This document shows, one piece after another, positions 32,008 to 60,332 of a stretch of DNA of 64,000 bases. Numbering within the stretch: position 1 is the first letter of the stretch; every line of letters starts with the position of its first letter. A program made the translations under genes and the position numbers. Source of the stretch: Pseudogymnoascus verrucosus (Eukaryota). The notes beneath the pieces were generated by a model that had not been told where the DNA came from, ran no database searches, and saw only the letters and a list, made by a program, of their open reading frames with translations. The stretch lies in NCBI GenBank assembly GCA_001662655.1, contig KV460245.1. One strand, 5' to 3'.

Positions 32008-32068
32008 ACATACGACCATAGACTCAAGAGAATTGGGCATCCCGTCCGCTCTGCCATACACAGGCTTG
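32008..32068 (+). rRNA. 5' half of an interrupted 5S rRNA gene
   Basis: ACATACGACCATAGACTCAAGAGAATTGGGCATCCCGTCCGCTCTGCCATACACAGGCTTG matches the ascomycete 5S 5' half. A TATA-like TTATATT lies ~28 nt upstream. Similarity breaks after 32068. Confidence 0.9.
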
Positions 32069-32329
32069 TAATTCAGTGGATAGATGCTCTCAATCGTGCC
32101 AATAGGCATAGTGTGGAATCTGAGCCCCTTGCCGCCTTAATGGGTGAAGCGAGGGTGAGGCGACGCACCGTTTTCGTGTCAATGTCGTGTCAGTCTCGCG
32201 TCAATTTCGTAATAGTATGCCTTGCTCTTATTTTCTGTGATCTACCATTTATGAGCCATAAATCTAAGCCACGTAAACTAAGCCCCAAAAAGTGCACATG
32301 CAGAGGTGCAACATTAAGACCACAAGTAG

Positions 32330-33182
32330 CTAAAGCGGGTGAGTCGTGTTCACCAAGCTCTTCGCCAAAGCGTCGCAATCGAGATTCCCAGTCGAGTTAA
32401 CCATAATTGAATGCCCCGTTTTGTTGAGAGCGGGAAAATCAAGACCAGAATGTCAGATTAGTCTTATCCGCTCAAAAGCTAGGTGGGGTGCCGGGGGGGG
32501 ATAAGATAGCACTCACGTATCGATTTCGCCATAAATTTTTATGCTATCAACGTCAGCTAGACTTAGAAAAGTCAGGTTGATGGCTGGCCCTCCCGTAGAG
32601 TTGAGAAGTAGGTCAAGGTTAATGTGTCTAAGCTTTAGCAAATTCAAGCTCGTGATCGAAGCCGCATCATCGATGGCCATGCTAATGGTGATATTAACAA
32701 GGTCGGGTAGATCGTTGATAGTAACATTAGTAGGTAATAGGAGGCTGTTGTCCCAATAGGTTCCACTATAGGTGCCTCTAATCCTAAGACCAGATAGCTT
32801 AGTTAAGCCGGGCACTTCTAGCGGCCCTGCGTAGTTATGAGACGTAATTAGGTGGCTTAAGTGTTTACGACAATCAGCGGGAACGGGCTCATTTGTGCCA
32901 TCAATCATAAACCACCTTACACCGTGAAGCGTAGCATCACATTCGTAGGTAGTTTCTGCGCAGCGGACAAACAAGGCCACATCTTCTGTGACATCAAAGT
33001 AGAACTCCGCATCTGTAGTTTTAGAGATATTTTCCAAAGTAGGACCGACTCCGTATCTGTGTATCCGTAAATTAGTCAGGGAAACATCAAACTAGGGTAA
33101 ACAAGAGGCACGTACTATAGGGAGCAATCGCGGCTGTAAGGCTCACGATAGACACGCCAACAAGATAGCGGCAGCACATCAT
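32330..33182 (-). pseudogene. Degenerate Ecm33/Sps2-like (receptor L-domain) cell-surface protein
   Basis: Signal-like start MMCCRYLVGVSIVSLTAAIAP, L-domain-like repeats (DLPDLVNI, SLNLLKLRHI, LTFLSLADV) and STGNLDCDAL. Second intron acceptor reads TGG instead of AG, followed by a frameshift and a premature TAG at 32332-32330. TA-rich. Confidence 0.55.
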
Positions 33183-33824
33183 CTTTCTGAAGCCGTAAGT
33201 CGCTCGCCCTCTAGAGGTGATATATTATTAGCTCACGCATGTTTTTGAGATTTGAACCCTTCTCTAGTTCTCCATAACGACATAACTCTTGCTAACTGCA
33301 CCACGGGAGGCATTGGTAGATAATTTAGCTGCGCAGGTTTTATTGAGGCAATCATTAACAACCTGGCCGACGTCTTTAATTCTCCTGCAGTGGCACATAT
33401 GACGGACGCGCTTACATCAGAAACTGCAGCCGAGCCTCATGACTCAAAGCTCGAAGAAAAGATGAAAGAGGGTTGCAGTGTCTTGTTGCCGCGGCACCTC
33501 GTTAGCAATCCAAAACAAGATTTGGCTAGTAATTAAGGGTAACTAACATCCTTAACGTCTCTTACAGCAAAAATTGAAACTTCGAGTGCGTATTCTATAG
33601 AGTGTTAACTGATGGCGCGTCGTGCAGCTATGGTACAAAACAAATACTGATTCTGGTGACTGTTATGAAGTCTGTCCCAAGATCATTTCATTCTATCTAG
33701 AGCACATATTCATTTTTCAATGTTGATTCATACCAATACCTAATAAAGTAGTTCGAATAAATTGAAACCTATAATCTCCTCGAATTCTCCTTCATTTCCC
33801 GCATTTCGGTTGCTTTGCTCGAGC

Positions 33825-34489
33825 TCATACCCTCGGACATTCAAATCCCCCAAAAATTGTCTCAAAGTCATACTCATTCCATCTAACTACCGGTTTCAGC
33901 CCCGCCCACCTCCACTCCCACCGCCCCTGGTCCCCCTCCACATCCTTAATCCACACCCTCCTGAAGTAAAACTCATTGGTTGCATGGCTATGTCCCCTCT
34001 GCTTCTCCACCTTATGGGTCTCATCTTCAAACCGCAGATGTCCCGCTCTCAACTGTTGTCTCGCAATCACAAAATCGTCATCGACTTTCTCCCACTCACA
34101 CGCACCAAGGAGATGCTGCGTCTTCAGCAATGGATCACCGAGGAAACCCGGAGAGCTCATCATGGCGACGAACGATTCCGCTGCCATGGAGGGATACGAC
34201 TCTCCCGAAACTTGGGTATAGTCGATCAACAAGACTGGCGCGAGGATGCGAGAGAGTCGGGCCCAGTCTTTGCTGTCATAACTGTCCGCCCAGTGGAAGA
34301 GGAGGGAGGAGAGGGCGAGGTGTTCTGTCGGCTTGCGTCAGCGAAAGGACAAATTGTCAAAAGATGGTGAGAGGGGAGGAGTAAATTGGAAAGAAAGGGA
34401 GACGGACCCTCGAAAGTGATCTGTTTCTTTCCTTTCTTGGAATCAATAGGTGAACTTATGGCGGACCCATTTGCAAAATTCAACCCCAT
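33825..34489 (-). CDS. SCD1: Scytalone dehydratase
   Basis: Intron 34407-34325 gives WADSYDSKDWARLSRILAPVLLIDY, followed by FLGDPLLKTQHLLG, GHSHATN and WAGLKPVVRWNEYDF. Start may extend to 34537. Confidence 0.92.
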
Positions 34490-36199
34490 CAAGCCACCAA
34501 GGCTGTTGCGTAAAAGTGATACAATAGTCAGAATCATGGTCTTGTTGTCTTACGGGGGGGTTTTTTTTGTCGTTGAAGATGTCAACTTTCTGGCTCAGGT
34601 TTTGATGTCCAGGGAATATATTTATATCCATCTCTAACCACTCTACCAAGAAAAGTAGAATGTAACGGAGTTCATGGACCGGACCTAGTGGAGAACACAG
34701 CCCCAGCTCCCACATCTCAATCCCAATGCCTAGTTGGCAAGTACCCCGATGCCTAATCCCACTGTGCCCCGAGGACCTTACATGTCGCCATCGGCCCACC
34801 AGTCTCATGTCCGGATCCGGTATAGGTGCATTGATATCAACAACGAAACAGCAGATAAAGTAGCCACCATATCGTATCTCGGATTTTCGTGTAGGCGCCC
34901 CCTGCTTCCTGGCACTTGTTGCTGAACGGGCACTTTCCAAACCAACGTTGTCCCTACGTGTCCCGGGCCATGATACTCATCCTGTTCCCTTGACCTTTTG
35001 TCATAATGATGCTACATCGACATCTCTGGCAGTTGTATCGATTCGGTCAATGAGGACTTGCTGCCTAAAGCGTCAATCCTTCGCTTCCTCACGTCATCTA
35101 ATCCAAATCCTTAGTCACCGAGACATACTCCGTATTCATTCTGAGTCGGAACCTTGCTGGGAAGACGGGAATTTGTAGGATTTCTACGAAGGGATGTTTT
35201 CAATCATGAAGATCGTACATTCCAGATGCGGTCGCGCGGATCCGGCAGTACAAGCTTCAGACTATTGTGATTCTGGCTCGGAACATCAACGGCACTTATG
35301 GAATAATTCGGCTCTAGGATGCATCACGACCCTGAAGGCTCAACCACTCCCAAATGCGAACCTGTGACGTCTATATAGGGATGAGCTGTCAAGCTGTCAT
35401 ATTGCATGGGACGGGATCGTGGGCTAAAAGCGGGTTGTCGCCTAGTGGATTGCTTGAACCCGATTCTACCCCTGCTCACCAACGTTTCTCCGTGGCCCAA
35501 TCACGCGCTTTCCCTGCTTTCTGGGAAAGCGCGTGATTGGGCCATTTGAACCACTTACTCCATAAATGATGGTTAGTTATTCGACGAATGTCAAGAAACA
35601 GCCCATCGGCAATCGATCGATGAAGATCTATAAATGGCTTATTGCTTGCTAAGGTGTGCCCGCTGCAGAGCGAAAGAAGTGACGTCAGGACGGTTCAGCG
35701 ATAATCCTAAGAGTTGCGCGGCTGAGACTGGTGCAACCGACTATTGACGCCTTGGGCCCAACTGTGGATGGCGGCGCCGCGACGCAGCCGTCCACGGTCG
35801 GTTGAAACGGCCCCAGCTTCGGGCCGGGAATAGTCGGCGTGAGTCGGGCCTCGAGGTGTGGGCAGGACGATTGTAGGGGCATTACATGTCCCCTGTGCAG
35901 TTTCGTAGTACTTATATGAGTATACTCGGAGTATGTAGGTACGAGACTACATGGAACTCCTAGGGCTCGAAATACCATTTGCGTCTGCTTTGATTTCCGC
36001 ACTTTCAAACGAATCTTTCAAATGCCGGCTGCTCCTTGTGCAGGTGCATGCTCACCGTGATATTGTAATATTGGCAAATGTCAGGGTGGACATAGTCGAA
36101 ATTGTAACCATCGCTCAAGTTGTCAATTTACTCTATCCTTACGAGCTGCTACCCTCTCCTGTCTTTTTCTTGAATCTCGGAAACCACACCATCCTCAAC

Positions 36200-39157
36200 A
36201 TGATCTTTTGTACCTATTGCGGTAAAAGGTTCACGAGAAAGGAGCATTTGGAAAGGCATATACCAAGTCGTGCGTATCCTCGTTACATCTAGGCTGCTTA
36301 ACATGCTGAGAAGTAGAAGATACAAATGTAAAACCTCACAGATGCAAATCGTGCCAACTTTCGTTCGCGAGAAGGTAAGTTCATATCACATCACTCATGA
36401 ACGAATCGTTTTTGATGATTACGCAGAGATCTTCTGCAGCGCCATTACTCGACATACCATGAAATAGGAGATCCATCTCTCCTACTTCCAGCGTCTATTC
36501 AAACCGTTGCTGGACGAACATCCATCGCTTGCCTCAACTGTGCGAGTGCAAAGACTAGCTGTGACAAGCGTGTACCATGCGCAAGGTGTGCGGATAAATC
36601 GCTGCCATGTGAAGCAAGGTTTACGCGACGACCATCAACTCTGATGGTGAAAGCAATAGCCACGTCTGAAGCCTCCAAACAAGCTCCAGAATCAACGGAA
36701 CCCAAACCACCACAGCATTCCGCTATCTCTACTCCACTAGAAAATAATGATATGGTTATTGACCCTCGTTTACATTCGGCTCCTGCGATGGAAATTGCAT
36801 CACCTACGCCCCAAATATACAGCACTAGTACCTCCGGCGAGCCAGGGTCAACGAGAATTGGTGGCTTCGATGGCTTTGTGCAATACAACGACGGAATTGC
36901 GAGTCCTGTCTTGAATTATCAAGATCCGCTCACATGGGACGATTTATCCATGGATATGAACTTTTATGGTAATCTCACATCTGTGCCACCCGAAAACATG
37001 CATCCGGTGTATTCAGCTCAAGGCGACATCTCGTCGGGTTCTGACATAAGCTCTAGCTCAATACAATATCAACCATCGATATCACATACAAGCAGCTGCA
37101 GTATAAGTTCAGTTGGCGATGTCGACATGGGAAATGTGCCACCATCCAAGCGGGCCAAGCTGTCTCATCGTGCTGTTGCACCTGGAGTTCAAGAACCCCT
37201 GGCTACAGAGCAAGCTTGGCCATTAGCACGGTGTAATCCGCCCACATTCTCGGACTCCTGCTCACGTACGACTATTGTTCATCTTGAGAGACTGGGACAA
37301 ATCTCTAAACATGAACGTGCTTGGGATTCCCTAGACTTGGAGCCTGACCTAGCTATGTCTGCATCAGATTTCATTAATGTCGAGCCTATTAACTCCGGCA
37401 CCCGCGATACTCTTAATGCCAATACGCTAGGTTTTCTGTATCGCGCCTTGAAAACACGTCAGGGTGGTTTCACGAACAAATGCCAGAATGACCACTATCT
37501 CAGTCCAGCAAATTTCAGCTCTCGTCTTCTCCCACCAACGAATATGTTGGAGTATTTTCTCCTGAAATATACTCTTAATTTATCGAAATATTATTCGCTC
37601 GATGCTAGGGGAAGAATCGACCCTAACGAGCTCATCCACGGTAACCATACTTCTACTCTCCTCATCCTCCTCATGATCGGCCAAGGCGCTTCGATGTCAA
37701 GGTCAACAGAAGCTCGCTGTCTGTCAGCTGCTTTGACAGAAATCTGTAGGATATTGCTCTTTGATATCATTGAACAAGATATCGAGCTCAGCGCTGACCT
37801 GACTGTTCTGCGATGTGCGCTATTATTTACGATGCTCGGTTCGTGGAGTGGGGATAAATGGCATATGGATATTGCGATGGGACAGCGCGGAATGTATCTC
37901 ACTATGCTGAAACGCGCTGGGATGTTGGATCCGCCAGATATTTCGGTGCCGAGGTTAGGTGGGAGTTCAAACGTGGATGCACAATGGCGCGCTTGGGTAG
38001 AGGCCGAAACTCGGAGTCGGTGAGGATCCTGCCTAGATCTCCTATCTACTTTCGGTGACTGACTGATACTTGACAGACTAGTATACGACTGGGTCCTGCT
38101 CGATCAAGAAATATCGCTTTTCCACGACATGTCAACCATCCTCTCCATCTCCGAGCTGCACGCACTCCTCCCTCACCCCAGCCCCTATTTATTCTCCGCT
38201 TCCTCCGTCCATGCCTGGTCGACGCTCCTCTCCTCATCCTCAACATCACATATCCGGACGTCCCTCCATGAACTCTTCCAAGACTTCCTCCACGACCATC
38301 TCCAGTATTCCGCGTCCCTTACGCCACTAACACTACGCCTCCTCCTCCACCCAATCCAAAGCCTTCTCTATGAAGTCCGGCAACTTCTAACTTGCTTCTC
38401 AGAGGTCCTCTCCACGCGGCGCTCCTCAACACGGACCCCCACCAAAGCTTCAACCCTCATACGTCTCGAAGAAGTCCAATCCCTACTGCAAAAATGGTAC
38501 AACCTGCACCTTTCCCTTCCCCCCTCCGTTTCTGGGTCGGCCCACGACTCGACCAAAACTACAAATCTGATCCTATATCACCTGATCAGCCTTAACGCAC
38601 ACACCTCCTTCACATCCCTGGAGCGCCTTGCGCGCCGTGCTCCCGCCACGCTTGCCACAGCGAACCCACACTGGGATCTCAGCCTGGAGCACAAAAAGTG
38701 CATCTTTGACAGCTTCTCCGCGCTTTTCCATGCAGGGCAGATTCTGCGCCTGGTGACCCTCTTCGACTCCCTAGATCGCACGCCGCCGTGGGCCTCCCTC
38801 GCCGTCTACCGCGCCAGCCTGATCCTCTGGTTTGACGTCCTCGCTACGTCTGATCCGAGCTTCCAGCTGCGGACTGCGGAGGGTCCAATTGTGGTGATTA
38901 ATGAGAGCATGGCCGATGATGCGGCGTTAATGTGCTGGCTATTGAAGAGGGAGGGGTTGCCGGTGCTAAGGGGCCGAGATGGCAGCATGTGCAAGTTGCA
39001 AAATCCAGAGGTGGTTTTGGAGGCTTGCATTAGGTTTGTGGGTGGGATGGATGAGGGAGGGAATCAGAGGGGAGGAAGGCTCGCAGATGGGATTGTGAGG
39101 AAATTACAGACGTTAAAGGGGAATTGGCATGGTGCTGGAGGCCTGCATGGCCCATAA
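36200..39157 (+). CDS. CMR1: Cmr1/Pig1/Amr1-family transcription factor (2x C2H2 plus Zn2Cys6)
   Basis: Spliced N-terminus MIFCTYCGKRFTRKEHLERHIPSHTNVKPHRCKSCQLSFARRDLLQRH and Zn cluster CLNCASAKTSCDKRVPCARCADKSLPC. Introns 36270-36319, 36375-36426 and 38020-38076. Confidence 0.9.
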
Positions 39158-40251
39158 TATACGTGTTTTTCGATCAATCTTGCTTTTGTTTCTTGCGGGA
39201 CGAAGAATTCATTTGTGGGGTTGAACGGAAGCCCCTGCATGACGTACATCTATATTTGGAGGGCGGATCTTCAGAAAGCTGATGACACAGAAACATTCGC
39301 AGCGTATGATTACTTTATGAGTCTACAAATCTATTAATCTCAACGATCATCCTTTCCCAACCCCACTTTTTCAATACTACCTATTTATCAATCACATTGC
39401 AATATGAGCCTCCCCACGTAAGCACATATTGAACTACAGGCCTACTGGTCCACTACGAAGGCTCTTGACTACGGATGAACAGACTACAGGTTCAATCTCT
39501 GCGTAGGTCATCGGTTTGCCCTCTCAGTCTCATGGAATCTATTCAATCAGAGCATGGTGGCTTGTTTTCCTCAATTTTTATACGTTCTCGAATTCGGCTG
39601 GTGGAAGAGCGCGGCTGAAAAATACGGCTTCTTGGGAGATTGAAATGTGTCCGATGGTTAGTATTTCTTGCATGCCGTATTGTACGAAGTCAATGAGAAG
39701 GTGTCACGCACGCCACGACATGAAGAGGTTACATTTCAGATCTAACATCACCTAATATACACAGGAATGCTTGCAGATATACAGAGAAAATGCGTTGGCT
39801 AAGTCTGCTTCTTGTCATCAATATATTTATCTAGAGGGACGGGTATTAGTTTCTGGATGAATACTAGGAATTGGTCCTGAGCAATACTACTGTATTTTCC
39901 TGTCGTTGACTCGGCTCTAAGATAGAACTATGACAGAGGGAAGCGAACGAAAGAAATTGCACGAAACTTCTACATTAACATCTTCACTTGTTAAATATTC
40001 AATGTTCTACTCCATCGCAGTCGAATTGTGTTCAAAGTTGGAAGATCACGTGCAACCGGACGAAGCACTTGTTCTCTCATCATGGCTGGTGGTCTTACAT
40101 TCCCAGTTCATACACCAACTTACTTATGGCCTTATCTACCTAGCTCTTTCGCCGGATGTTTCCTATTCTCGGTCAACCGCCCTAGTAATCCGTTCTACGT
40201 CACTCACCACCAAGTCCCTCCCGGCCCGTCCAAGCCCGGAAGTCCGTCAGC

Positions 40252-40309
40252 AAGTCCGCTGGGGAAGTCCGCTGGGGAAGCCCGCTGGGGAAGTCCGTTG
40301 GGGAAGTCC
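40252..40309 (+). repeat. 13-bp tandem array (AAGTCCGCTGGGG x4 plus partial) upstream of the reductase
   Basis: Units at 40252, 40265, 40278 (AAGCCCG variant), 40291 (GTTGGGG variant) and a partial unit at 40304. Confidence 0.85.
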
Positions 40310-40716
40310 TCTGCCTTCGGACAGCGGCTCTGCTGCACAACCTCCATCGTTAGCCCTCTCTGCTCCCAAAGAAGGACTGCGCGCAGCTCTATGGACTCCG
40401 GGAAAAGGGAACCGGACGAGTCAGTTTGGGGAAAGGGGAAGGCAAATGCTGTCATTAACGGATAAGGGAAGAGAGACTGTGCGGACTTCAAATGCGACGC
40501 ACGAGACGGACGGAATAGGACGTTTTCGAAGCCGATGACATAAACACATCTGCTCAAGATGGTGATATATACCTCGACACTAGAAGATTACGCCTTCAAA
40601 CCGAGTGACGAGTAATTCGAGACTTAAAGAGCTACTTTTCGCATATCATCCTTCCCCATTTATGCAACTTTAGGCCTCAACAGCGACATCTACAATACAT
40701 CAAAACTTTCAAAATC

Positions 40717-41656
40717 ATGGCCCCACCAGCAGCAGTTGACGAGATCGCCTCTAGCCTCGCTATGGGCGGTGATGTTGATCCCCAAGGTGCCACTACATTT
40801 TTTACCTCCCTTCCATTTGCTGGAAAAGTCGCCCTCATAACCGGTGCATCCCGTGGAATCGGCCGTGGCATGGCTCTCGAGCTCGCCCAGCGCGGCTGCT
40901 CCATTATCGCGAACTATGCGTCGTCCGCGACAGAAGCCAAGTCGCTCGTTAGTGAGATCCACAAGCTCGGAACTGGCGCCAAGGCCATTGCTCTGCGTGC
41001 CGATGTCTCTAAGCCTGATGAGATCTTCCAGCTCTTCGAGGACGGCATCGCCCACTTTGGCCACCTGGACTTCGTCATTTCAAACTCCGGCACTGAGGTT
41101 TGGAAAGATGAGCTCAAGGTCACCGAGCAGGACTTCGATCGAATTTTCGACCTGAACTGCCGTGGTCAGTTCTTCGTCGCCCAGCAAGGCATGAAGTATC
41201 TCCCACGCGGCGGCCGCATCATCCTCATGTCCTCGATTGCTGCCTCCATCTCGCATGTGCCTAACCACGCCTTATACGCAGGCTCAAAGGCAGCCGTGGA
41301 GGGGTTCACAAGGTGCTTCAGCATTGATTGCGGCCCGAAGGGTATAACCTGCAACGCGATTGCTCCGGGAGGCGTCAAGACCGACATGTTTCAGGGTAAT
41401 GCATGGCATTATACACCTGGCGGAACACCGGATACGCCAATGAGCGAAATCGATGCGGGTATTGCAAAGAGCTCCCCATTGAATCGCGTTGGGTATCCAG
41501 CTGATATTGGCCGTGCCGTATCACTACTTGTGAGCCCAGAAAGCGAGTGGATTAATGGTAAGGGACCGCATTTTCACCCTTGTCGGTGATAATTTGTAGA
41601 CGCATGCTAATCTTATCTCAGGCCAGGTCATCAGGCTGAGTGGAGGAGCCATTTAA
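40717..41656 (+). CDS. Hydroxynaphthalene reductase SDR (1,3,6,8-THN reductase, Brn2/Arp2/4HNR type)
   Basis: TGASRGIG, NSG, NHALYAGSKAAVEGFTR and IAPGGVKTDMF..NAWHY. Intron 41558-41621; ends GQVIRLSGGAI*. Confidence 0.88.
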
Positions 41657-42367
41657 ATGGTGCATCAGTCGTTGCCCCCTGACTGTCGTGTCACGATATT
41701 GTATGGACGAGAAAATGTCGAACATTGCATACAGGTTTCTGCCTCAACCTCTACATGTAACTTGCACATCATAGATTGAATCTAAACCAAAGAGTTGCAT
41801 GTTTGACTACCTCAACTGATATGCATAATTGAAGTTCGCGACTCATGCTCAGCTCTAATGACATTAGGTGACGGACTTGCCTTGGTCAAGATTTTGTCGA
41901 GATGTTTTGTCCAACTCCATAATCGTCCCGACTAAAATTTTCGCTTTGGGTTAGAGTAATTGGAGTGTGCGGTTTGGAAGTGAATAAAAGAATTAACCTG
42001 TTCTCGCTGCCATACCTTATCTAAACATTCAACTCGTTTCAGTTCCGAGATGGCAATGTTGTAAGTGTACTTTTTTAGGTTTATGCTCTAGCTAGATTCA
42101 TGCCATGAGGTGTATAGATGAGACCTCATAGAGAAATAGTAACGATATAGTTCGAGTCCAAGTGACTCTTCCATTCAATTGAAGTGGGCTCACATTTGGA
42201 GGAAACAGTTTGCCATAGTTTGAGTATGTTAAACCGATATAGAAGACCATTAAACCCTAAAATGATTGATAACTTTTCGAAACCAATCGCAATTGAACTC
42301 TGATGATCCCGTCCTCTAAATTTATGCTTATGACACGCGCGTCATAAGCATTCATTGTCGCACATAT

Positions 42368-43618
42368 TTAACATCCTTCCGTCGGCCAGAATATTGAATC
42401 GGCTATTCCAGACGTCATACGCTGTTTGCCCATTCTCAGTTCTTCATATGCGATGTTAAGGTTTTTTGATAAGTGACCCAACAAAGTAGAACAAATGCCA
42501 GCATCCCTATCCCTTTCATTGCGTCCGCAAACTTCGCGGAAACGCCCAAAGAGTTCTTCCAGTTTCCGGAGTTCGCGCCATAAAATTTCATTACTGAGCC
42601 AACGACCATCTTCGTTAGCAACGCGATAACTGCCGATAGGCATTTGTGAGTCTGCTCCAGTCGTACCACCGAACCCACCCTGCAACGCTACCTGGTAAAA
42701 TGACAAGATTTTCTCCATTATGGTGGCAAGGAGCATGGTAGTGGTATTGGATCCCGATTTGGAAACACATTCTCTGCAAGCCAACATACTGGCACATCCT
42801 TCTACAGCTTTTCGATTGATGGTCAAGGCCATGTCAAACGCTGACGCTAATCGAGTGGTGCTGGAGTGATTGTGAAGAGCTTGAAGAGATTGAAGGCAGG
42901 TCGTAAAGCAGTTGCAGGATGGCGAGGATATCTTAGCATTGGTTCGGCAATCAGGTGGAGAGTTGGCATCGAGCGATGAATTTGGCGATGGAAGTTCTGC
43001 ATTCGTGCGGGGATGGAATGGTAAATTTGACGACTGACTATCGGACCATGGCGAGATTAAATTCAGCTGTGGTACAGCACCTAAATATTTCGGGCAAGAC
43101 ATCATTGTCCCTTGATCGTTTTGGACGACCGGATTGTCAAACTCGATCTGCGATATTGGCGTCCAAGGGAGCGAGGGGTCAAACAACTCGGTAGTGCTAG
43201 GAGGCAGTCCCAAATCGTAAGCATCAAACAAAGCGTCGTTGCGATGGGATGCAGTTGTGTTTGCCGAAGATAATTGCTTTCTATTTCCATTCGCTGACCC
43301 TAATGAAATATTCTTTTTATCGGTAGCTATGGGCATAGCTTGAGAGTCAAACGCAAAGCGGGAATGCGCGGCCTCGTCGACGTTCGTATTTCGGTCGGCA
43401 ACAGCACTGGTATTGATGTTGGAGTTGCTGATTCTCCTATCTGTACTTGGTTTGCCGGTCCTCAACGATGGACTGTATTTACAATCTGTTCCGCACGTGA
43501 GGCAGCGAGAACATATCGGCCTAGTTTTACTGCATTTAACCTTTGCGAAGAAGCATCCATCACAAGAAGCTCTGAACCTCTGAAGACGGGTCTTATTTGA
43601 AACTTTACTTGGTGACAT
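42368..43618 (-). CDS. Zn2Cys6 pathway-specific transcription factor, AflR-like
   Basis: [31 protein letters not shown] cluster and an AflR-like C-terminal block ([11 protein letters not shown]...[21 protein letters not shown]). Confidence 0.85.
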
Positions 43619-44628
43619 CGTAGCTGGTATTCGTTTGAGAGTTATTGAAATGGAGATATAAAATATGGCACCCTATGGATGGCACGGTCGACGTTGGCTG
43701 GAGCTCCACTGATGAAAATGTTGTGTTAATTCGATGCCATTTAAGTCGAGTGAAGGTAAAGTGAAGGTAAAATGCTTCTGCAGCAACATATATCATTTCA
43801 GACAAGTTAGATGGCCATATGATAAACCTGTGATCTAGGAACAGTTATTTATATGACGTAAGTAGTGAACCGGCCAAAGAAGCGGAAGCGTCAAAATGAC
43901 GCGTTAGTAGTTGCTGTCAACTAGTACCACATTCTTAAGGTTCTGTTCCAGTGCGCCGACCAATTGCACTGTCGCTCAGTGCAGCTACATCCTCTACATG
44001 AAGCTGCGCTGAGGCAGCTTCTATTTACGGTCGTCAGTATCAGCGAACAGATTGGATAAAACCTTCTCACGGTTCAAGAACAAAGTGATGGCCTACAACC
44101 CCCTCATGTTTCTCACATACGCGATAGTCCAGAGCGACCTAGCCCGGTTACGTCATTAGATACTTTCACCACGACCTCTTAAGCCACAACCTACCATAAC
44201 TCTTCTTAGTGTTGAGGTCATTGATAATATCGCTTAGAGCCCTCTTTTGTCCATGGGTCTCTGTCGCCTTCCGAGCATACCTCGATATTCTCTATGTAAA
44301 ATCCCGATCTAGAGCGTCTATTTCGTCGCTTTTAGCAATTTGTACGCATTCTGTGTTACTATTTTACGCTAGTATTAGCACGTACACCTACCTAGAACTG
44401 GTAGTGCATCTCTCGCCAGTATCGTAACAGAGGGATGCGATAGCTCTAAGCTCTCAGCACCAAAAATCATATGTTTCCTCACTTACTAACGGTCCTCTCA
44501 AGTACTGCTCTGTGTCACGTAGTCGAAGCGTGAGTCTAAATAGTGATCGTACATTGTAATTAATAAGACTTTAGATGCTCTCTTAAGGAGGGCATCCTTC
44601 ATAGCTATATATCAGTGGAGCATTATAT

Positions 44629-50600: not shown

Positions 50601-51272
50601 AGTCTCCAATTTTTGTTTGTGTGTAGTGATAACTCACCTTCGACTCGTTAAAATCAGCAAGTAGGGACCTTCCAGCTGGTTCATTAAGTCCCGGAACAAC
50701 ATAAGTCCAGCTCTTGGCCGCATCGCCAGATTCATGTATGTGCTCTGCAAGAGCAGAAACATGTCGTCCTGTTCGGAAGGCCAAAAGTACAAATTCGGCG
50801 CCAATGTTTACAAGAGCCGAGAGAGATGGTGCAATGGAAACCGCAACGGCGGCAATAAGCCCGGTGCAGAGGCCAACTGTCCATGTTTCCTGTGGTCTTG
50901 TAGCATCTTCCGGAACCTTTTCTGCTCGACTAAAGTATTATAAGCATCAGATAAGAGCAAGATCGTAGTGAGCACGTACTCGATATAGTGAGCGAGTTGT
51001 GTAGTAACAAGAAGAGCACTGTCTATTGCAGGATGTGTAACATCCCTGGTATGATATCTCTGACTAAGTTCTTGGATTGTAGTGAAAGATGGTATGTGTC
51101 GACGTTCTAGAGATGGGAGACGTTCGATCTCATTTTGAAGAGTAGAAGCAACGCGATTGAGGAAAGCATGTGAAAGAATACTTGGATTTCCATTACGGCA
51201 AAAGTCTGCAAGAAACCCCTGTGTGTCCAGAGACTGTTCTCCAAAGAGAAGAAATGATATTTTCTCGGCCAT
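44629..51272 (-). CDS. Non-reducing iterative type I PKS, SAT-KS-AT-PT-ACP-ACP-TE (~2160 aa), DHN/naphthalene type
   Basis: SAT GLCTG; KS DTACSSS, HGTGT and GHGEAASG; AT GHSLGE; PT GHLVNG; ACPs GVDSLMSL and GVDSLMAL; TE GWSAGG...GNHFSMM. Introns 50979-50930, 50637-50589 and 44729-44677. Confidence 0.95.
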
Positions 51273-52734
51273 TTTGAGCACCAGTTGGACATCAGTAAGA
51301 ATAATGGGACGCAGGGTTTGGAGGTGCTTTTAGGCTTATAAAGAGTAGAGAAAGTGCTTTACCCGACATGGCAATACTTCCATTATACTTTTAGTCACAT
51401 TTAGCGCATCAACTCTATCGGTCGCCGAGCGCTGATTCAGGTCTATATCGTCATATACGTGGTACATTAGATCCAAAATTGCCTTGCGAGGCTTTGGTAG
51501 TTTCGTTATTTCCATCTATTACTATGGAAAGCCACAATGCTGGTAAAAGAAGCCCTCAAGCTCAATCGAGACATAATTGAAATCAATCCACACTTTAAAA
51601 AGAGACATCGTCCACCCCATTAGGGAAGCTTTTTACATGTCAAGACACAGCATGAAGATCCAATACCAAATGGAAATTAGGAAGCGCATGGACGCCGACC
51701 GAAGACCGAAGCTATAGCTACGAATTGAGCAGTACCACAGCCATCATCTCGAGCTTAAAGAGAGAAGACATCAGTCCTTTGATTTGCATTACAGGAACCC
51801 AAAAAATTTTCCTGTTGATGATTCAAAAAGGCTTAGAGTTTCCGGCGGACTTCGTGGACATCCCCATGGAGGTCCGAAAGAACACGGAGAGCCACAAATG
51901 AGCTAACGTCAGTGTTCAAGCCATGTGTGCGAGGTCGCAATGTCAATTGAAATATTAAAGAACTTCTTTAAATATTCTATACCAGATAATCCCCGTTGCC
52001 AATGAAGAGGTAAAGTAAGCACCTTTTTATAATAATTTGTATAGAGGGCAAGCTAAAATAAGGTTCTCACTTCGTCGCCCTACCCAATTCCTCGGTCACC
52101 TTCGCGCCCATTCTCGCTACCTCTCTCATCGGCTTTTGAGTCAGGAAACTGGTTCTGTTCTTCTAAAAAATCGGGCAGCTGGCTTTTTGAAGAGCTGCTA
52201 CACTCTTTTCCAGAGGGCCTCCTACTTTCGAGCCTAAAATGCAGCCCTGGAAGCTGCTTGTGGACCTGGTTAGCTGCATTGCGGGGTATTAGTTTACATA
52301 CTAATAAATGCAAGATCGGGAGTCGTACCAAAGTTCGAAGCGCAAGGCCTGGGCCGGCACGCTTACGAACTGGCTCGGTTCACGGTTGGGCCGGAACATA
52401 CACGAAGTGATAAAAGGGATGAGATCATCCGTAGCAATCCCTACTCCCAGCGGGTTTCCGAGGATTTTCCCCACCGGACTTCCGTCGGGGATAGTGAAAA
52501 TTTTGATATCATATAGACCGCCCAAAAAAACCTTCACTAGTCCTGTGTCATATTTTGTCGGGGCTGTTTAAGAACACGTCATTTTGGCCTAATCCTAGCA
52601 TTCAGGCCGACCAGCAGCTGTTAAACTTCAATTCACCTCGGTCGTATAGGCTCACGTTGAGTTTCTGTAGTCGCGAAGCCTTTACTGCAGCGCCTAAATT
52701 CTACAGTTGATTTCCCCACTTACTGAAAGCTACT

Positions 52735-54543: not shown

Positions 54544-54695
54544 TTCCTTTATGTTCTCTTATGTGGGTTGCCTGGTCCTATATGATGGTTTATTCGGGTT
54601 TGGGAGGAGTTACGGGCATATATCAGAGGTCTTGTTCTATAACCGTGCTTCGGAACATGTAGGGTGATAACTCTTTCTTCCACGGAGATCGTATA

Positions 54696-57097
54696 TGTTC
54701 CGGCCCAACCGTAAGATCGGCCAGCTCGCGAGCTGGCCGGCCCATTCGCGAGCTGGCCGGCCCAACCGCGAAGTGGCGGTGTAGAATAGTATCGTAGAAA
54801 TTGAAATCCTACCTCCTACCTCCTACAACTATAGTATAGTATAGTAATTATGGCTACTATTACTTCAATTACTCCATTTCCATTTGACGTACGCACTGCT
54901 TTTGAGGCCTATATAAGCAGCCCTACTTACTACAATCGAGAGCAATTCTCACACGAAAAATGGGGCCAAATACACACTATACTCGAGGATCCAGCTGCTT
55001 TTATTCTGCATAATAAAGAGAGTACAAACCTAAAGCACCATACACTCTCTAGCTTTAAGCTTGTTAATAATAAGCTATATAAGCAGAGTGATAGGCGGAG
55101 TGATAAGCAGCACCTACGAGCTGTAGTTCAAAAGGCTGAGGTGTTTGACGTTATTGCACAAGAGCACCTTAAGCTTCTACACGCAGGTCGGAATAAGGTA
55201 TGGCCTACTATCAAGCAAAAATACTATGGAATAAAGCGAGAGGATGTAGAGTTTATACTTAAACGGTGTAAGAATTGCACTTTGAATAGGCCGAACACTA
55301 CAAAAGCTCCCTTAGTTCCTATTATAAGTGGACGGGCGTGGGAGAGGGTTCAAATCGACTTAATTGATATGCGCCACGAGCCTTTAGGGCAGTATAAGTG
55401 GATTCTTCATATAAAGGATCACTTCTCAAAGTATACACAGCTATACCCATTGAAAAGCAAGCACGCAGAGCCTATTGCAGAGTGCTTTGCTCAATTTATT
55501 ACAGCTTTCCTACCTCCGAAGATTATGCAGGCTGATAATGGGAAGGAATTTAAGGGGGCTCTCTTACTCCTACTACGGAAGTATGGAATACAGGTGATAA
55601 ATGGAGCACCACGGTCGCTACAAACTCAGGGCCTAGTCGAGCAGGCTAATGGGGTTGTTGAGAATAAGCTCCGGGCATGGAAAATGGATCATAGGTCTAC
55701 AGAATGGAAGGATGGGCTATTAGAGGTTACACTTGCTATGAACACCCAAATCTACTCTACAATTGGGTGTGCACCAGCTGAGCTTCTATTCCGGGAACGG
55801 AGCTCATATATCAATTGGCTCGATAGCTAGGCCCGGAAGGATCTAACAATCGGAATTGAGCAGGAGGACCCAGCTATGGGCCCTATTTTCGAGAGCGACC
55901 TCCAGTCTGAGCTTGAGTCCGAGACAGAAGCTCTAATCGACCTACAGCTCTAGCGAGTCCCTGAGCCTAGCTCTAGCTCTGAGCCTGAGCTAGAGCCTAA
56001 GCGAGAGCTCGATTCTAGGCTTCGAGCCCAGCCTAGAAACCGAGCTAGAGCCAGAGCCCAGCACCAGCAAGCCCCTAAGCCCAGAATCGAGCACTCTAGC
56101 TCAGAGCTCAATTCCGAGCCCAGCTCTAGCTCTGAGCTCGAGCTAGAGCGAGAGCTCAATTCCGAGCTCTGTCGTCTAGTTCCTACTCGAGCTCAGGCTC
56201 GAGTACTGGCTCAAATCCAGGCTGAGCCAGAGTTCTGTCTTGAGCTCGAGAACTCTAGAGCCCAGCGAGCCCCTGAGCCCAGAATCGAGCTCTCTGGCTT
56301 AGGGCTCAGAACTCGAACCAGAGCTGGCGCTAGAGCCCTGATCCAGCTTGGACCAGAGCTCGGAATTGAGCTCTCTAGCTCTAGGCCTAATTCCGAGCCC
56401 AGCTCTGGCTCAGAGCTTGAGCCAGAGCCAGAGCGAGAGCTCAATTCCGAGCCCCGGCGTGGGACCTGGGCCAGAGTTCCAGCTCAGCCTAGAACTGAGC
56501 TTCGGGCTACACCTAATCCTATAATTGAGAGAGCTATAGCAGCCACTCAACGAGCTAGGATTTCTATGGTGCGGAAGTATATAAAGAAGCATGATATTTA
56601 GCACTTTGATATAGGAGCAATAGTCTCTATAAAGGTTCCTCGAGAGGATAGAACCTCAACTGATAATAAGAGGCTATTTGCACGGATTCTAGAAGAGCCT
56701 TACCCTCATAGGTATCGGATTCTTACAGCTTCTGGTATTATACAACGCCTTATTCCTACAAAATCACTTAGAGTTGTAGAGCAAGCTCTATGGGCTGATA
56801 TTATAATTCCTACTTCTACAAAGCAGATATCATTAGGGCTTGCAGCTAGANNNNNNNNNNNNNNNNNNNNNNNNNNNNNNNNNNNNNNNNNNNNNNNNNN
56901 NNNNNNNNNNNNNNNNNNNNNNNNNNNNNNNNNNNNNNNNNNNNNNNNNNNNNNNNNNNNNNNNNNNNNNNNNNNNNNNNNNNNNNNNNNNNNNNNNNNN
57001 NNNNNNNNNNNNNNNNNNNNNNNNNNNNNNNNNNNNNNNNNNNNNNNNNNNNNNNNCCAGCTCGCGAGCTGGCCGATCTTACGGTTGGGCCGGAACA
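54696..57097 (+). mobile_element. Ginger/TDD-like DNA transposon with retroviral-type integrase, inactivated
   Basis: TIRs of at least 41 bp (TGTTCCGGCCCAACCG... at 54696-54736 and 57057-57097), TATA 4-bp target duplication on both sides, and an assembly gap at 56851-57056. Confidence 0.85.
54850..56850 (+). pseudogene. DDE integrase/transposase (H2C2 plus rve core) with in-frame stops
   Basis: H..H...CKNC zinc motif and catalytic QIDLID, QADNGKEF and GLVEQAN. In-frame TAGs at 55828 and 55951, then an E/P/S/L-rich repeat tract and a C-terminal VSIKVPREDR block. Confidence 0.82.
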
Positions 57098-57352
57098 TAT
57101 ATAATTTGACGACAAAGACGAGGTATCGTGCTTTGAAAACCTATCGCGGTGTTACCTTGTTAGTTTGTTCACATTAACAGCCCGGTGGCTTAGAACCCGT
57201 AATAAACAATGGCGACATTTGGACTTCATGCTATGCATATTAATGAGGATTCAATTTTAATCTGCAAAGTGCGCATTTGACGTTTAGAAAATTAGGCCTC
57301 GGCTATAACGAGGACTCCGGTCCATTGGTAGCCAATATGAGTTAAACCGTAT

Positions 57353-59556
57353 TTATAACCCGGAATCTATCTGATCAACGACGTTATGCCCACTATATTG
57401 CCACCAGTCTCGACAGGTCTGCGCCATGATCGACGGGATTTGGCACTCGGTGATCAAATCAGGGCGTTCCTAGGTTCTCTTTATCAGCCAAGTTCGCGCC
57501 ATCCATTAGTACAAAGCGACAAAATAAAGAGTTGTTTAGCAAGGAATAGTGGTTATAACTCACCATAACGTTCATAGACAGCCCATCACTAATATGCCAA
57601 GCGACATGACAATGGAACGGCCACACCCCAGGATTATCGGCCAAGAAATCAATCACCACATAACTCGGTTTGCCCGGACTGGGATACCCCCAATCGATGA
57701 TGTGTGTGTCCCTTCGCTGCGGGTTCTCGGGCCGCGTGATGACTCCGTCCCATTCCCCCACCCCCTCAGCGATGACCCAGAAGCTATGGCCGTGGAGGTG
57801 CATGGGATGCATAATGGGGATTCGGCTGCGCACGATGAGGCGGATCGAGGTGCTATTACCAAAGTTGTAGACGTTCCATTGCGGGTCGTCGGGGTAGGAG
57901 GTGTTGCCTAGCTTTGCGAGGAGAAGTATTGGGTGGCTGAGATTTTGTGTTAGGAGTTGTGAGGAGTGAGTGAGTAGGTGGACTATAGGGTGTGGAATAG
58001 GGAGTATTTAACTCACTCAAAGTTAGCTCGGAAAGACTGGTTGTTTATGGTCCACAATTCACTGCCTGTGGCATTAGTTTGGAAGTCAATGTCGACTATC
58101 TGCGTAAAGTCAGGCTCAGGAGGAGGCGCCATAACAAAAACAGGCTTCGTCATATTAAGAGGGTCGTTTGAGCAACTCGTCTCATTGTAAACTGTAGCTT
58201 TGGATGTTGGCGTAGTGGAATTGTCAGATTCCTCATAGTGGATTATAGCGAGAGCATGAGGCTGGTTGGTATTGCTACATCTCTTGCTAATGTCGCTTCT
58301 CATCCAGAATGATTCTGTAGGGCGGCCCGTTCCTCTAACGAGAACGTCACTACGCTGCCCAACTCCAAGCGTGATAACATCTGTTTCATAAGGTTTAATA
58401 GGCACGTAGTCGTTAGCAATTACTGTCATGGTGTGGCCATCGATAGTAAATCTCTGGGTCCCCTCTGATCCAGAGTTAATAAGACGTAGTCGGTGTACCT
58501 TTCCAGACACCAATTTGAACCTTGATAAGCTAGCATTAGGCGTGCAATTTGTTTTCGTGAGAGAGCAGTCATAATCCATCTTGCCATTAATGAGATTGTT
58601 GTCTGAATTTGGAACAGCTCTGGTTCCTATGTAGCGCTTAACAAGCTCGAAATAACCCGTGTGGTAATGGTCAGACTAGCTAAGTAAGCCACTTGTTTCT
58701 GAACAAGAATTCGATCACGTACCAGAAGTATAGGTCCAAGGTCATAATCATAATGTGTATGAGCAGGTCCGTGGATTATCATAGCCCCAAAAATCCCGTC
58801 TGCGTACTGAGCGCTGTAGTGAGAGTGATACCAGCTTGTGCCATAAAGGCCCGCTTGAAACGTATACGTGAACGAGCTCCCTGGTGCAATAGGGCATTGA
58901 GAAACTATTAGTTACGTTAATATAATGCGATTTACATCAAAAACTAGCAATATTACCTGATGGTATACCATCAAACCAAGGTGTCTGATCTTGATGCAGA
59001 CCATGCCAATGGAGACTGGTTCCTTCTTCAGGACCTGTGATATTATTTGTCACTGTTATCTGTCCAATTTAGTGAGTTTGATGCTGCAACTAAACTCAGT
59101 GATCTCACCTGAAATGTATCTCCCCAGTTCGCTTCAATAGTCGGACCAGGAAATTGTCCGTTGATTAGTATACCATTTTTTTGGACGCCATCTGGTGCTA
59201 GGGTGCCGCGCTCAATGACAAAATTATATGGGCGGATTTTTCCAGTATACGGAGCATGGCGGGGATCTGTGAGATTCGTTGTCGCCAGTCCCCATGGAAG
59301 TCCATAAGGTAAGGGCTTCTAACCATTAGAAAGTGCCGAAAGCACGAGAGGGAGACTTACGCCGTCCGTTAGAAATTTGGGCATGTAAGGAGCAGACAGC
59401 GTGCCTAATAGAGAGTGTCCTAGAAAACAATGTATAATCAGTTTCCATTATCTTAGTTGTAGAAGTCTAAACGCCATTAATACCATTTGTAGCGACTTGC
59501 GGCAGAGAAGCTATTAAATTTGCCGAGTCGAAGATGGACCGGAAGGAGAACTTCAT
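57353..59556 (-). CDS. Laccase / multicopper oxidase
   Basis: Copper motifs [17 protein letters not shown] and HCHVAWH, plus [15 protein letters not shown] and the ascomycete laccase C-terminus DSGL*. Multi-exon; start codon uncertain. Confidence 0.92.
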
Positions 59557-59935
59557 ATCGACGTATTACTCTGGGAAGAGCGAAAATAATCCACAACAAC
59601 AGAGATCTGAAAAAAATAAGATTCCCAGGTGATGCCATTGATTAAAAATATACATAGTCGTGAGCAGTCCTTATAGCTACACCTGTAGAAGAAAATGGGT
59701 TAAGACAATCTAGGATCGGCTATGGCTCCGTCGTAACAAATAAACGTTGCCAAGAGACACAGTAGAGAGTCGGGCCAATAAACACCTATGATAATGTAGG
59801 ATGGCTATGAAACTGTCTCAATAACCGCTGAACACGGAGAGACAGGAGTTAAGACAATAAACACCTGCAACACCTGTCTCCAGTTGCGCTACACAGCCCA
59901 ACATGAAACAAAAAATATGTGCGAATTCCGCATCC

Positions 59936-59976
59936 AGTACTCATATCACTCCGCAGTGCGGAGTGATATGAGTACT
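59936..59976. repeat. Perfect palindrome, 20-bp arms, 1-nt spacer
   Basis: AGTACTCATATCACTCCGCA-G-TGCGGAGTGATATGAGTACT. Confidence 0.9.
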
Positions 59977-60075
59977 AGATCCGGAGCCACCGCAGTTACA
60001 CTTCATGGCTTGTCCGCTCACTCAACTCACCTGTAGGCATCCAATATCGCTGTGCAATGCGTCGTAGTCGAGGTC

Positions 60076-60169
60076 AGATGGGTGAGGGAAGGTGAGACAT
60101 CCAGTAAATGTCATTTGATGGATATATCAAATGGCATTTACTGGATGTCTCACCTTCCCTCACCCATCT
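60076..60169. repeat. Inverted repeat, 44-bp arms (one T/G mismatch), 6-nt loop
   Basis: AGATGGGTGAGGGAAGGTGAGACATCCAGTAAATGTCATTTGAT-GGATAT-ATCAAATGGCATTTACTGGATGTCTCACCTTCCCTCACCCATCT. Confidence 0.92.
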
Positions 60170-60266
60170 AGGGGGATAACCGGATTGTCATGAGGCATCA
60201 AAAACATAAGGGTGGCGACGCTCACCCAGTAGTCTAAATGGCACCGTCCTAAGTATTAATCCACTT

Positions 60267-60332
60267 CAAGCTTGAGATCGGTGGATTAGTAGTTGGGTGG
60301 GTGACCACCAGCGAATACCCTCTGTTGTATGT
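60267..60332 (+). rRNA. 3' half of the interrupted 5S rRNA gene
   Basis: CAAGCTTGAGATCGGTGGATTAGTAGTTGGGTGGGTGACCACCAGCGAATACCCTCTGTTGTATGT matches the fungal 5S 3' half. Its end GTTGTATGT pairs with ACATACGAC at 32008. Confidence 0.92.

Follow-up and report, generated by a model that had tools for sequence, protein, structure and literature searches.

Starships of Aspergillus fumigatus known as Osiris (Enterprise family) insert specifically into 5S rDNA and fragment the 5S gene; they span 37–138 kb, their haplotype h4 carries a biosynthetic gene cluster (BGC) with a non-reducing PKS (NR-PKS), and direct repeats longer than 6 bp accompany the 5S targeting (PMC12153272). The starfish paper and its tables give 5S rDNA as a favoured Starship target, with about 23% of the curated sites, direct repeats of 6–16 bp and at least five sites used by 5S-targeting elements (PMC11162782). 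The cut site of Voyager of Macrophomina phaseolina lies 20 bp into the 5S gene, with the repeat GCCCTGTATTCT (PMC9156397; PMC11162782 Table S1), and an A. niger element has its repeat at the 3′ end of the 5S (PMC11162782 Table S1). The captain is positioned at the 5′ end of a Starship (PMC9156397).

The locus described here resembles the Osiris elements in its 5S insertion, its fragmented 5S gene and its NR-PKS cluster; however, Osiris elements possess a DUF3435 captain and are strain-polymorphic, whereas the present block has no captain in its assembled sequence, measures 28 kb, occurs in all four relatives examined and holds a melanin-type cluster (PMC12153272). The existence of 5S-targeting Starships with cargo genes, which an earlier note on this DNA had taken as its premise, is documented in print, BGC cargo included (Osiris h4, PMC12153272; the 5S share of sites, PMC11162782). 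A fixed 5S position and a 5S-derived direct repeat are shared with Voyager and with the A. niger and Alternaria tenuissima elements (PMC9156397; PMC11162782), although the site of the block, 5S positions 54–61 (CAAGCTTG), differs from the three 5S repeats among the matches listed in the starfish tables, none of which contains AAGCTTG (PMC11162782).

The interrupted 5S rRNA gene and its junctions

In the window (the whole stretch of 64,000 nt that was analysed), the 5′ part of a 5S rRNA gene (positions 1–61) lies at 32008–32068 and the 3′ part (positions 54–119) at 60267–60332, both on the plus strand and in the correct order, as the earlier note had proposed. With each stretch cut at its junction, the left part aligned to positions 1–59 of the Rfam model RF00001 (10.4 bits, E = 10, 3′-truncated) and the right part to positions 49–120 (26.9 bits, E = 4.7e-4, 5′-truncated), neither half alone reaching the Rfam gathering score of 38 bits; a search of the whole window with this model at E ≤ 1 returned no 5S match, the halves and other fragments included. 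A length of 119 nt results from either join, 32008–32060 with 60267–60332 or 32008–32068 with 60275–60332, and the script-rejoined sequence is identical at 113 of 119 positions to an intact 5S gene of 119 nt from a metagenome contig (L002), whose 3′ half is 97% identical to the right half. Measured against the predicted Y-shaped fold of the L002 gene, the rejoined sequence would make 35 of the 36 pairs and all 13 of those bridging the two halves, in agreement with the length and the cross-half pairing put forward previously. The TATA-like box and the terminal T-run named there are likewise in place: TATATT was read directly at 31980–31985 on the plus strand, 23–28 nt 5′ of the 5S start (−28 to −23), and the 3′ end leads into a T5 run at 60332–60336.

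The block locus shares about 50 nt of sequence 5′ of the gene with other 5S-bearing contigs in the relatives, where the 5′ half (32008–32068) reaches 40–90 times single-copy depth and 20–30 distinct 5S-bearing contigs are found per relative in about 32–36 Mb (107 Mb read for X19). That two unrelated 5S fragments would by chance fall within 28 kb of each other with matching strand, correct order and the same 8-bp overlap is unlikely, at a rough estimate of below 1%. The evidence supports one 5S rRNA gene split by about 28.2 kb of DNA that holds a whole PKS cluster, and this arrangement would have arisen by insertion of the block as opposed to the addition of 5S pieces.

At the boundaries, direct repeats matching the target site, as used to recognize Starships, are present: direct comparison of the junctions gives CAGGCTTG at 32061–32068 (plus strand) on the left and CAAGCTTG, a palindrome equal to 5S positions 54–61, at 60267–60274 on the right, where it opens the 3′ part. 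The left copy is one change from the palindrome, with G at 32063 where other 5S copies have A; since canonical copies read A at this position, both copies of the repeat probably started out as a perfect CAAGCTTG. The G occurs in no contig of X2 or X6 and at about one single-copy depth in X4 and X19. The words AGTGGAT (32075–32081) and ATCCACT (60259–60265, plus strand) are a candidate short terminal inverted repeat (TIR), lying 1 and 6 nt inside the 8-bp overlap; an exact 7-nt inverted match within 20 nt of each end arose in 248 of 20000 random pairs (1.2%). A weak collinear inverted chain between 32075–32195 and 60265–60183 (~120 nt) scores 15.5 against 9.8 ± 2.4 (p about 0.02) and was equalled by 24 of 1000 shuffles and 15 of 1000 random segments; evidence for TIRs, a frequent though not universal feature of Starships, is weak at the block ends. 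The block interior has a GC content of 47.7% against 51.4% and 50.6% for the two flanks, a difference that speaks for an inserted block. An inverted-repeat search found a near-perfect palindrome with 44-nt arms (98%) at 60076–60169, some 100 nt inward of the right junction, containing GGGTGAG-type motifs like those of the left tail and showing weak inverted similarity to 32132–32159.

Gene content and the search for mobility genes

The block is flanked by two convergent genes, as had been stated before: a Sal1-type Ca-dependent mitochondrial carrier gene at 29443–31549 (plus strand; Pfam EF-hand_7, 5.6e-16; Mito_carr, 1.4e-42 and 2.1e-10) and an MFS transporter gene at 60682–61961 (minus strand; MFS_1). 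The first interior ORFs (32516–33416, minus strand) give a weak CFEM hint (E = 0.0053, below the cut-off), and a 192-aa ORF there has no Pfam match. These are followed by a scytalone dehydratase (33828–34337, minus strand; Scytalone_dh, 1.8e-52; PDB 1STD/4STD, E = 4e-42), a Cmr1-like regulator (35939–39154, plus strand; zf-C2H2, 5.4e-6; Zn_clus [Zn2Cys6], 2.5e-5; Fungal_trans, 1.2e-4) and a 1,3,6,8-tetrahydroxynaphthalene reductase-type SDR (40717–41586, plus strand; adh_short_C2, 6.8e-50), which matches PDB 1JA9 with E = 1.4e-108 versus 1.9e-69 for trihydroxynaphthalene reductase and has its best named relatives in Leotiomycetes (63–70% identity). An AflR-like Zn2Cys6 regulator (42371–43672, minus strand; AflR, 2.2e-10; Zn_clus, 4e-7) precedes the NR-PKS, which occupies three ORF pieces at 44691–51329 (minus strand) with the order SAT-KS-AT-PT-ACP-ACP-TE (Pfam ketoacyl-synt, 6.4e-74; SAT; PS-DH; two PP-binding; Thioesterase). 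Further to the right are a cytochrome P450 (52883–54540, plus strand; p450) between inverted ~56-nt repeats (52350–52405 and 54689–54744, 79%), an LTR-retrotransposon integrase fragment (54835–55827, plus strand; rve, 5.2e-9; Integrase_H2C2, 5.6e-7), a directly read scaffold gap of 206 N (56851–57056) and a laccase-type multicopper oxidase (57462–59318, minus strand; Cu-oxidase, Cu-oxidase_2, Cu-oxidase_3). The first 45 nt past the gap are a perfect reverse complement of 54692–54736.

The NR-PKS, the hydroxynaphthalene reductase, the scytalone dehydratase, the Cmr1-type regulator and the oxidase together make up the set expected of a DHN-melanin cluster, and judged by this gene make-up the cargo is of DHN-melanin type; a further naphthalene-derived product is conceivable in view of the P450 and the AflR-like regulator. 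In the Leotiomycete Botrytis cinerea, the genes bcpks13, bcbrn2 and bcscd1 form a melanin cluster (Schumacher 2016, cited in PMC5733056), which similarly groups a PKS, a hydroxynaphthalene reductase and a scytalone dehydratase; the likeness concerns this core, and the portion of PMC5733056 that treats the Botrytis cluster says nothing of a location within a 5S gene. In its make-up, the cluster of the block looks like an ancestral melanin cluster of Leotiomycetes, unlike typical accessory cargo, and this content argues against the view, an interpretation in the earlier note, that everything between the 5S halves is accessory DNA.

No DUF3435 (PF11917) captain was found among 32 ORFs of at least 130 aa, 38 ORFs of 75–364 aa or 99 intergenic ORFs of 40–74 aa, a scan that left out ORFs antisense inside recognized genes and the 206-N gap and that a heavily decayed gene could escape. 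The Pfam matches of the same ORF sets include none of the Starship companions DUF3723, ferric reductase, patatin-like and NLR, and the ORFs scanned within the block include no hAT transposase. Outside the N gap, the space between genes in which a decayed captain could lie reaches about 1.6 kb at most. As assembled, the block lacks a recombinase gene.

The left tail repeat and the block in relatives

Inward of the left junction, the block opens with ~170 nt of a repeat family that has about 5–9 copies per relative genome. This tail (32069–32241, plus strand), recognized from its depth in the relatives and its homology on two metagenome contigs, is always joined to 5S position 61 and contains a GGGTGAG-type minisatellite; its depth at 32184 is about 5–9 times single copy in all four relatives, and in each of these genomes several contigs pass from the 5S half into the tail. 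Among the metagenome contigs scanned for the junction word, two loci (L001 and L002) show the same 5S–tail joint before unrelated genes. The L001 tail is 79% identical over 248 nt, with four differences in the first 75 nt, and the homology stops just past the T-run TCTTATTTTCT (32226–32236). On L002, just 17 nt of 5S precede the tail, and an intact 5S gene stands 55 nt upstream of it, an arrangement that is not predicted by a simple insertion model and counts against it. Neither a captain nor a 3′ half was found within 10 kb of the tail or left unit (5S 1–61 plus tail) on these two contigs, and the RNA folding stability of the tail is not unusual (z = −1.37). Because the tail is joined to the same exact 5S position at several other loci, a family of 5S-specific integrating elements would exist in this lineage, and the block would carry at least one of its ends. 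The repeat family joined to 5S position 61 is new here.

In the four relatives examined (X2, X4, X6 and X19, out of 23 runs), flank and interior are present at single-copy depth in all 30 bins, and the divergence of the interior rises in step with that of the flank, which argues against recent mobility. No empty site was seen; the contigs of these relatives end at the repeated 5S and so display neither a filled nor an empty junction. X4 (organism D) has a 349-nt deletion at 32764–33114, within the first interior ORFs. In X2 and X4, the contigs that cover the interior stop near 56450, short of the N gap.

Origin of the block

With moderate confidence, we favour reading the block as the old relic, now without a captain, of an element that integrated specifically into 5S genes and was most likely Starship-like. 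A single 5S gene would have stood between the 3′ ends of the Sal1-type carrier gene and the MFS gene and would have been opened at the 8-bp palindrome (positions 54–61) by integration of what is now the 28.2-kb block, leaving the 8 bp at both junctions. The 8-bp overlap with inverted AGTGGAT words just inside suggests a crossover of the site-specific tyrosine-recombinase type, and known 5S-targeting Starships behave in the same way at their junctions. The captain may have been lost, or may never have been present if the block was moved in trans, and the block would have been kept by at least four related species while no longer being visibly mobile. With no mobility gene and with four relatives carrying the block, it would be an old relic and not a working giant transposon. 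The earlier proposal of a PKS cluster as Starship cargo thus holds in part: the split 5S and the 8-bp direct repeat speak for it, whereas the missing DUF3435 gene and companions, a cargo that is not obviously accessory and the presence in all four relatives speak against it.

The 5S parts could instead be two unrelated pseudogene pieces, and the melanin cluster an original resident of this locus. The left unit would then be a copy of a dispersed pseudogene or SINE-like repeat, spread by segmental duplication or as a retroposed read-through Pol III transcript, and the 3′ half a separate 5′-truncated pseudogene. The multi-copy left unit lacking a nearby 3′ half on L001 and L002, the L002 copy with its 17 nt of 5S, as in a 5′-truncated retrocopy, the T-run at the end of homology as a possible Pol III stop and the ancestral-looking cluster make-up would all suit this, and filamentous fungi commonly carry truncated 5S pseudogenes (18–83% of copies; Rooney and Ward 2005, cited in PMC5555474). 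We nevertheless consider it unlikely, given a density of a few dozen 5S loci in ~33 Mb: the two halves share strand and order, and the 3′ half begins 28 kb away at the very 8 bp with which the 5′ half stops. Furthermore, no target-site duplications were seen by eye around the units, and some copies extend into the ~50 nt 5′ of the 5S, a stretch that would be missing after retroposition. A giant transposon of the cut-and-paste (DDE) type, for example a non-autonomous hAT-like element with the cluster between short TIRs, appears distinctly improbable. An 8-bp duplication is a hallmark of hAT elements, which prefer the target nTnnnnAn. The junction repeat, the AGTGGAT words and the weak inverted similarity of the ends agree with such an element, but the 8 bp do not fit the preference, the sole DDE-type match in the block is the retroviral-type integrase fragment, strict adherence to a single 5S position across several loci is atypical for hAT and a 28-kb cargo is unusual; with the repeat present, TIRs weak and transposase absent, the block is not assigned to hAT.

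Very little weight is given to a scaffolding artefact, in which a wrong join at the N gap would have brought together two loci, one with the left half and most of the cluster, the other with the right half and the laccase. The gap itself, the inverted copy that follows it and the lack of an X2 or X4 contig across it leave room for such a join, but a laccase-type oxidase is expected in a melanin cluster, and a random misjoin would not give 5S pieces that match to the base. Least probable, and only barely credible, is a complete and possibly active Starship with its captain in a missed gene model or in the unassembled gap, which could hide one: the 5S target, direct repeat, size and BGC cargo fit published Starships, but captains sit at the 5′ end (PMC9156397) and both ends of the block are assembled without one. 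The scanned ORFs gave no DUF3435 signal, and a block shared by four relatives with divergence tracking the flank does not fit either.

Aspergillus nidulans has 5S pseudogenes of the type '5′ half plus conserved 3′ sequence', and the truncated 5S pseudogenes of filamentous ascomycetes resemble the left unit of the block in having a 5′ half followed by conserved non-5S sequence at several loci. The left unit differs from them in that a matching 3′ half, with an 8-bp overlap, lies 28 kb away, and this suggests that 5S 'pseudogenes' of this kind can be scars at the left end of large insertions.

One 5S rRNA gene in two pieces

As the earlier note had proposed, a single 5S rRNA gene is present as two halves in the right order on the same strand: positions 1–61 of the gene occupy 32008–32068 and positions 54–119 occupy 60267–60332, both on the plus strand. 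The pieces share an 8-bp overlap, CAGGCTTG at 32061–32068 versus CAAGCTTG at 60267–60274, the latter being a perfect palindrome at 5S positions 54–61; this junction repeat is the sole refinement of the earlier 5S observation. When joined by script, the pieces give 119 nt with 113/119 identity to the intact 119-nt 5S gene of a metagenome contig locus, L002. In the rejoined sequence 35 of the 36 pairs of the predicted fold of the L002 gene form, as do all 13 pairs that bridge the halves, in line with the helix pairing that had been noticed across them. The TATA-like element and the T-run reported at either side were also recovered, as a TATATT box 23–28 nt upstream and a T5 run after the 3' end.

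At the gathering threshold Rfam returned no 5S match in the whole window; neither piece was called at E ≤ 1, and a 301-nt piece that surrounds the left half likewise had no match at E ≤ 1. Truncated Infernal alignments were yielded only by stretches cut at the junction, with the left piece covering model positions 1–59 (10.4 bits, E 10) and the right piece model positions 49–120 (26.9 bits, E 4.7e-4). Neither score reaches the gathering threshold of 38, which is no surprise for halves without any long-range pairs. The window has G at 32063, where all other 5S copies in the sequencing runs of four related fungi (X2, X4, X6 and X19) have A, so that the original junction repeat was probably perfect; in X4 and X19 the G has a depth of about one single copy, and in X2 and X6 it is absent. 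The split 5S gene is real, and an insertion scar is the best reading of it.

The ends of the block and their counterparts elsewhere

The left end of the 28.2-kb block between the halves is a member of a repeat family, which is a new finding. The 667-nt bin just inside the left junction has 7–11 times single-copy depth, the depth at 32184 corresponds to about 5–9 copies in all four relatives, and six or seven contigs per genome cross from the 5S half into the tail (the first ~170 nt of the block, 32069–32241) and then diverge in a GGGTGAG-type minisatellite. A search of metagenome contigs with the junction word gave two loci. At L001, 5S positions 1–61 are joined to the tail, with four differences in its first 75 nt; homology with the window stops at about 32241, just past a T-run near 32230, and a methyltransferase, a Tc1-like transposase, LysM proteins and a GH18 chitinase follow downstream. 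The intact 5S gene of L002 (10195–10077 of that locus, minus strand) has TAAACTTG in place of the CAAGCTTG core of the window, and is followed by a 55-nt spacer and then by a 17-nt 5S fragment with the core joined to the tail (10027–9909), beyond which lie a histidine kinase and other ordinary genes. A 5S variant lacking the target adjoins the copy that was hit, which recalls the variant-specific targeting that PMC9156397 describes for Voyager. Within the 10 kb examined at L001 and L002, neither a captain (the DUF3435 tyrosine recombinase of Starships) nor a 5S 3' half was present. As a folded RNA the tail has no unusual stability (z −1.37), and it matched no Rfam family.

The two ends share the word AGTGGAT in inverted orientation, 6 nt in from the left repeat and 1 nt in from the right repeat, an arrangement with a chance of 1.2%. 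Strict local alignment of the two ends gave a score of 24, equal to the maximum of 200 shuffles and not above it, and looser scoring lent weak support to a similarity between the ends. Two near-perfect palindromes, at 60076–60169 (44-nt arms) and 59927–59985 (29-nt arms), lie in the block within 350 nt of the right junction, and the former yields spurious microRNA-family matches in Rfam. A sequence of about 45–56 nt, found three times in alternating orientation (52350–52405, 54689–54744 and 57057–57101), brackets a P450 gene and an integrase fragment and is either a transposon end or a contig-end assembly artefact. Helitrons begin with 5' TC and end with 3' CTRR near a hairpin; a Helitron was rejected, as a direct repeat stands at the junctions and neither feature is seen at the ends.

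Gene content and divergence in related fungi

The block begins with an ORF pair with a weak CFEM hint, followed by a scytalone dehydratase (PDB 1STD, 4e-42), a Cmr1-like regulator that combines C2H2 and Zn2Cys6 domains, a reductase whose closest match is 1,3,6,8-tetrahydroxynaphthalene reductase (1JA9, 1.4e-108), an AflR-like Zn2Cys6 regulator and a non-reducing PKS (SAT-KS-AT-PT-ACP-ACP-TE), after which come the P450, the retrotransposon integrase fragment, a 206-N gap and, last, a multicopper oxidase. Judged by these matches, the 28.2-kb content is a DHN-melanin-type cluster. The best named relatives of the reductase are from Leotiomycetes, with 63–70% identity, and the one-cluster arrangement is common to the block and to the Leotiomycete Botrytis cinerea, for which PMC5733056 places bcpks13, bcbrn2 and bcscd1 in one cluster; on these grounds the content resembles a standard pigment cluster more than the usual accessory cargo. 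A 13-nt unit (AAGTCCGCTGGGG) in four and a half tandem copies (40252–40316) lies inside a 205-aa ORF located between the genes of the Cmr1-like regulator and the reductase. By domain matches the flanks are ordinary genes on both sides, in agreement with their earlier description as housekeeping: a Ulp1 protease, a phosphatase, a RING/TRAF protein, a SNARE, a cyclin and a Sal1-type carrier to the left of the 5S gene, and an MFS protein and a JmjC/cupin protein to the right. A tRNA gene lies in the flank at 14385–14456 (Rfam 56.3 bits). Tetranucleotide distances added little beyond the GC shift between block and flanks.

A junction-spanning 10-kb query led to 23 runs, of which four, from four differently coded organisms, were compared over 22062–42061; small-sided joints (sides of 21–34 letters, for example 32056 to 37648) were discounted as noise from repeats. 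The 23 include runs X12–X18, from more distant relatives, with word shares of 0.11–0.14. All 30 bins are covered at single-copy depth in all four relatives, in flank and interior alike. Their contigs end at the 5S start (32002–32009) and restart at 32188–32567 because the 5S gene is a high-copy repeat (20–30 contigs, 40–90 times single-copy depth); the four relatives thus display no junction, be it empty or filled, and these breaks were not taken as evidence for its absence or presence. The depth of the 5S half against single-copy depth points to roughly 85 to more than 170 5S copies per genome in the relatives, summed depths being only a rough guide, in those 20–30 distinct contigs. The interior contigs of X2 and X4 extend to about 56450, judged from their lengths, so that the cluster is collinear as far as the repeat-rich stretch that precedes the gap.

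Other-letter counts in flank and interior were 38/9894 and 17/9874 in X2, 114/9912 and 88/9146 in X4, 279/9938 and 96/7707 in X6, and 69/2088 and 84/5818 in X19. In X2, X6 and X19 the first 10 kb of the interior thus shows about half the divergence of the 10-kb flank, and in the fourth relative, X4, the two values are close (flank 1.15%, interior 0.96%). Flank and interior divergence climb in the same order across the runs, a pattern that fits co-inheritance of block and flank; the divergence of the four relatives gives no sign of recent spread. As to the lower interior divergence, the cluster genes may be under stronger constraint, or the history that the relatives share for the block may be younger. 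In organism D (run X4), 349 nt with GT..AG ends are missing at 32764–33114, within the first interior ORF, so the first gene of the block is polymorphic among relatives. The content speaks against the view that the interior is all accessory DNA: the cargo is a melanin-type cluster common to relatives and not strain-specific.

Captain search and origin of the block

DUF3435 was found in none of 32 ORFs of at least 130 aa right of 27.5 kb (chosen from 80, antisense ORFs inside recognised genes being left out), none of 38 ORFs of at least 75 aa outside recognised genes at 31.9–60.4 kb (chosen from 100, one piece beside the gap being excluded) and none of all 99 ORFs of 40–74 aa, mostly intergenic; the same three sets (32, 38 and 99) contained no DUF3723, ferric reductase, patatin-like or NLR gene. 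No gene-free stretch exceeds about 1.6 kb, the gap aside, whose 206 N may differ from its true size. Whereas Starships carry the captain at the 5' end, as given in PMC9156397, both ends of the block are assembled and gene-free. Starship membership fails on the captain. Of the Starship-like island that had been proposed, the split 5S gene stands, now with a junction repeat; the captain and companion genes are missing from the ORFs searched and the cargo is shared by relatives. 'Starship-like' is a fair term for how the block probably came to its place. Of the two titles listed in a literature search, neither was about a melanin cluster as Starship cargo.

A tyrosine-recombinase crossover would have left the 8-bp overlap flanked by the inverted AGTGGAT words, and this repeat compares with the strand-specific direct repeats of 6–16 bp reported for 5S-targeting Starships in PMC11162782. 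That one 5S position was reused at several loci speaks for site-specific integration. Together these points lead us to prefer an old relic, without a captain, of a Starship-like element that targets 5S genes, a reading to which we give about an even chance. Three 5S-targeting repeats from the starfish tables occupy other 5S positions, none with AAGCTTG, so that the target core would be new compared with these three. A further-reaching version, which we consider unlikely, assigns the block to a 5S-targeting family not described before, with the CAAGCTTG core at 54–61 and a conserved end of ~170 nt. As a non-autonomous member without a captain, the block would have been moved in trans by a recombinase encoded elsewhere, relocating or importing a whole DHN-melanin cluster that was later fixed in a species group.

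The L002 copy with only 17 nt of 5S, and the T-run where homology ends, would also suit a left unit that is a self-dispersing pseudogene, the 3' half being there by coincidence; this too seems unlikely, as the halves complement each other to the base. If this rival were true, an ordinary melanin cluster would stand beside ordinary 5S debris. A DDE transposon with an 8-bp duplication is a still weaker candidate. A scaffold misjoin at the gap would draw on the 45 nt at 57057–57101, which begin at the first base past the N run and are a perfect inverted copy (100% complementary) of 54692–54736, and is very improbable; a complete Starship whose captain falls in the gap is the most improbable of all.

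Starships so far known are strain-variable carriers of accessory genes. If the block is a relic of a 5S-targeting element, a standard melanin cluster would lie inside the scar of a 5S-specific integration and would have been retained through speciation, such elements could turn permanent and lose their mobility gene, and the location of gene clusters held as core could stem from them. Truncated 5S pseudogenes would then be markers for old captain-less insertions invisible to captain-based tools such as starfish, and a new 5S target position would be added to those described. Should the trans-moved family be real, a core pigment pathway would have been brought to its present place as cargo, and fungal 5S pseudogenes of the classical '5' half plus conserved tail' type would be scars of such elements.
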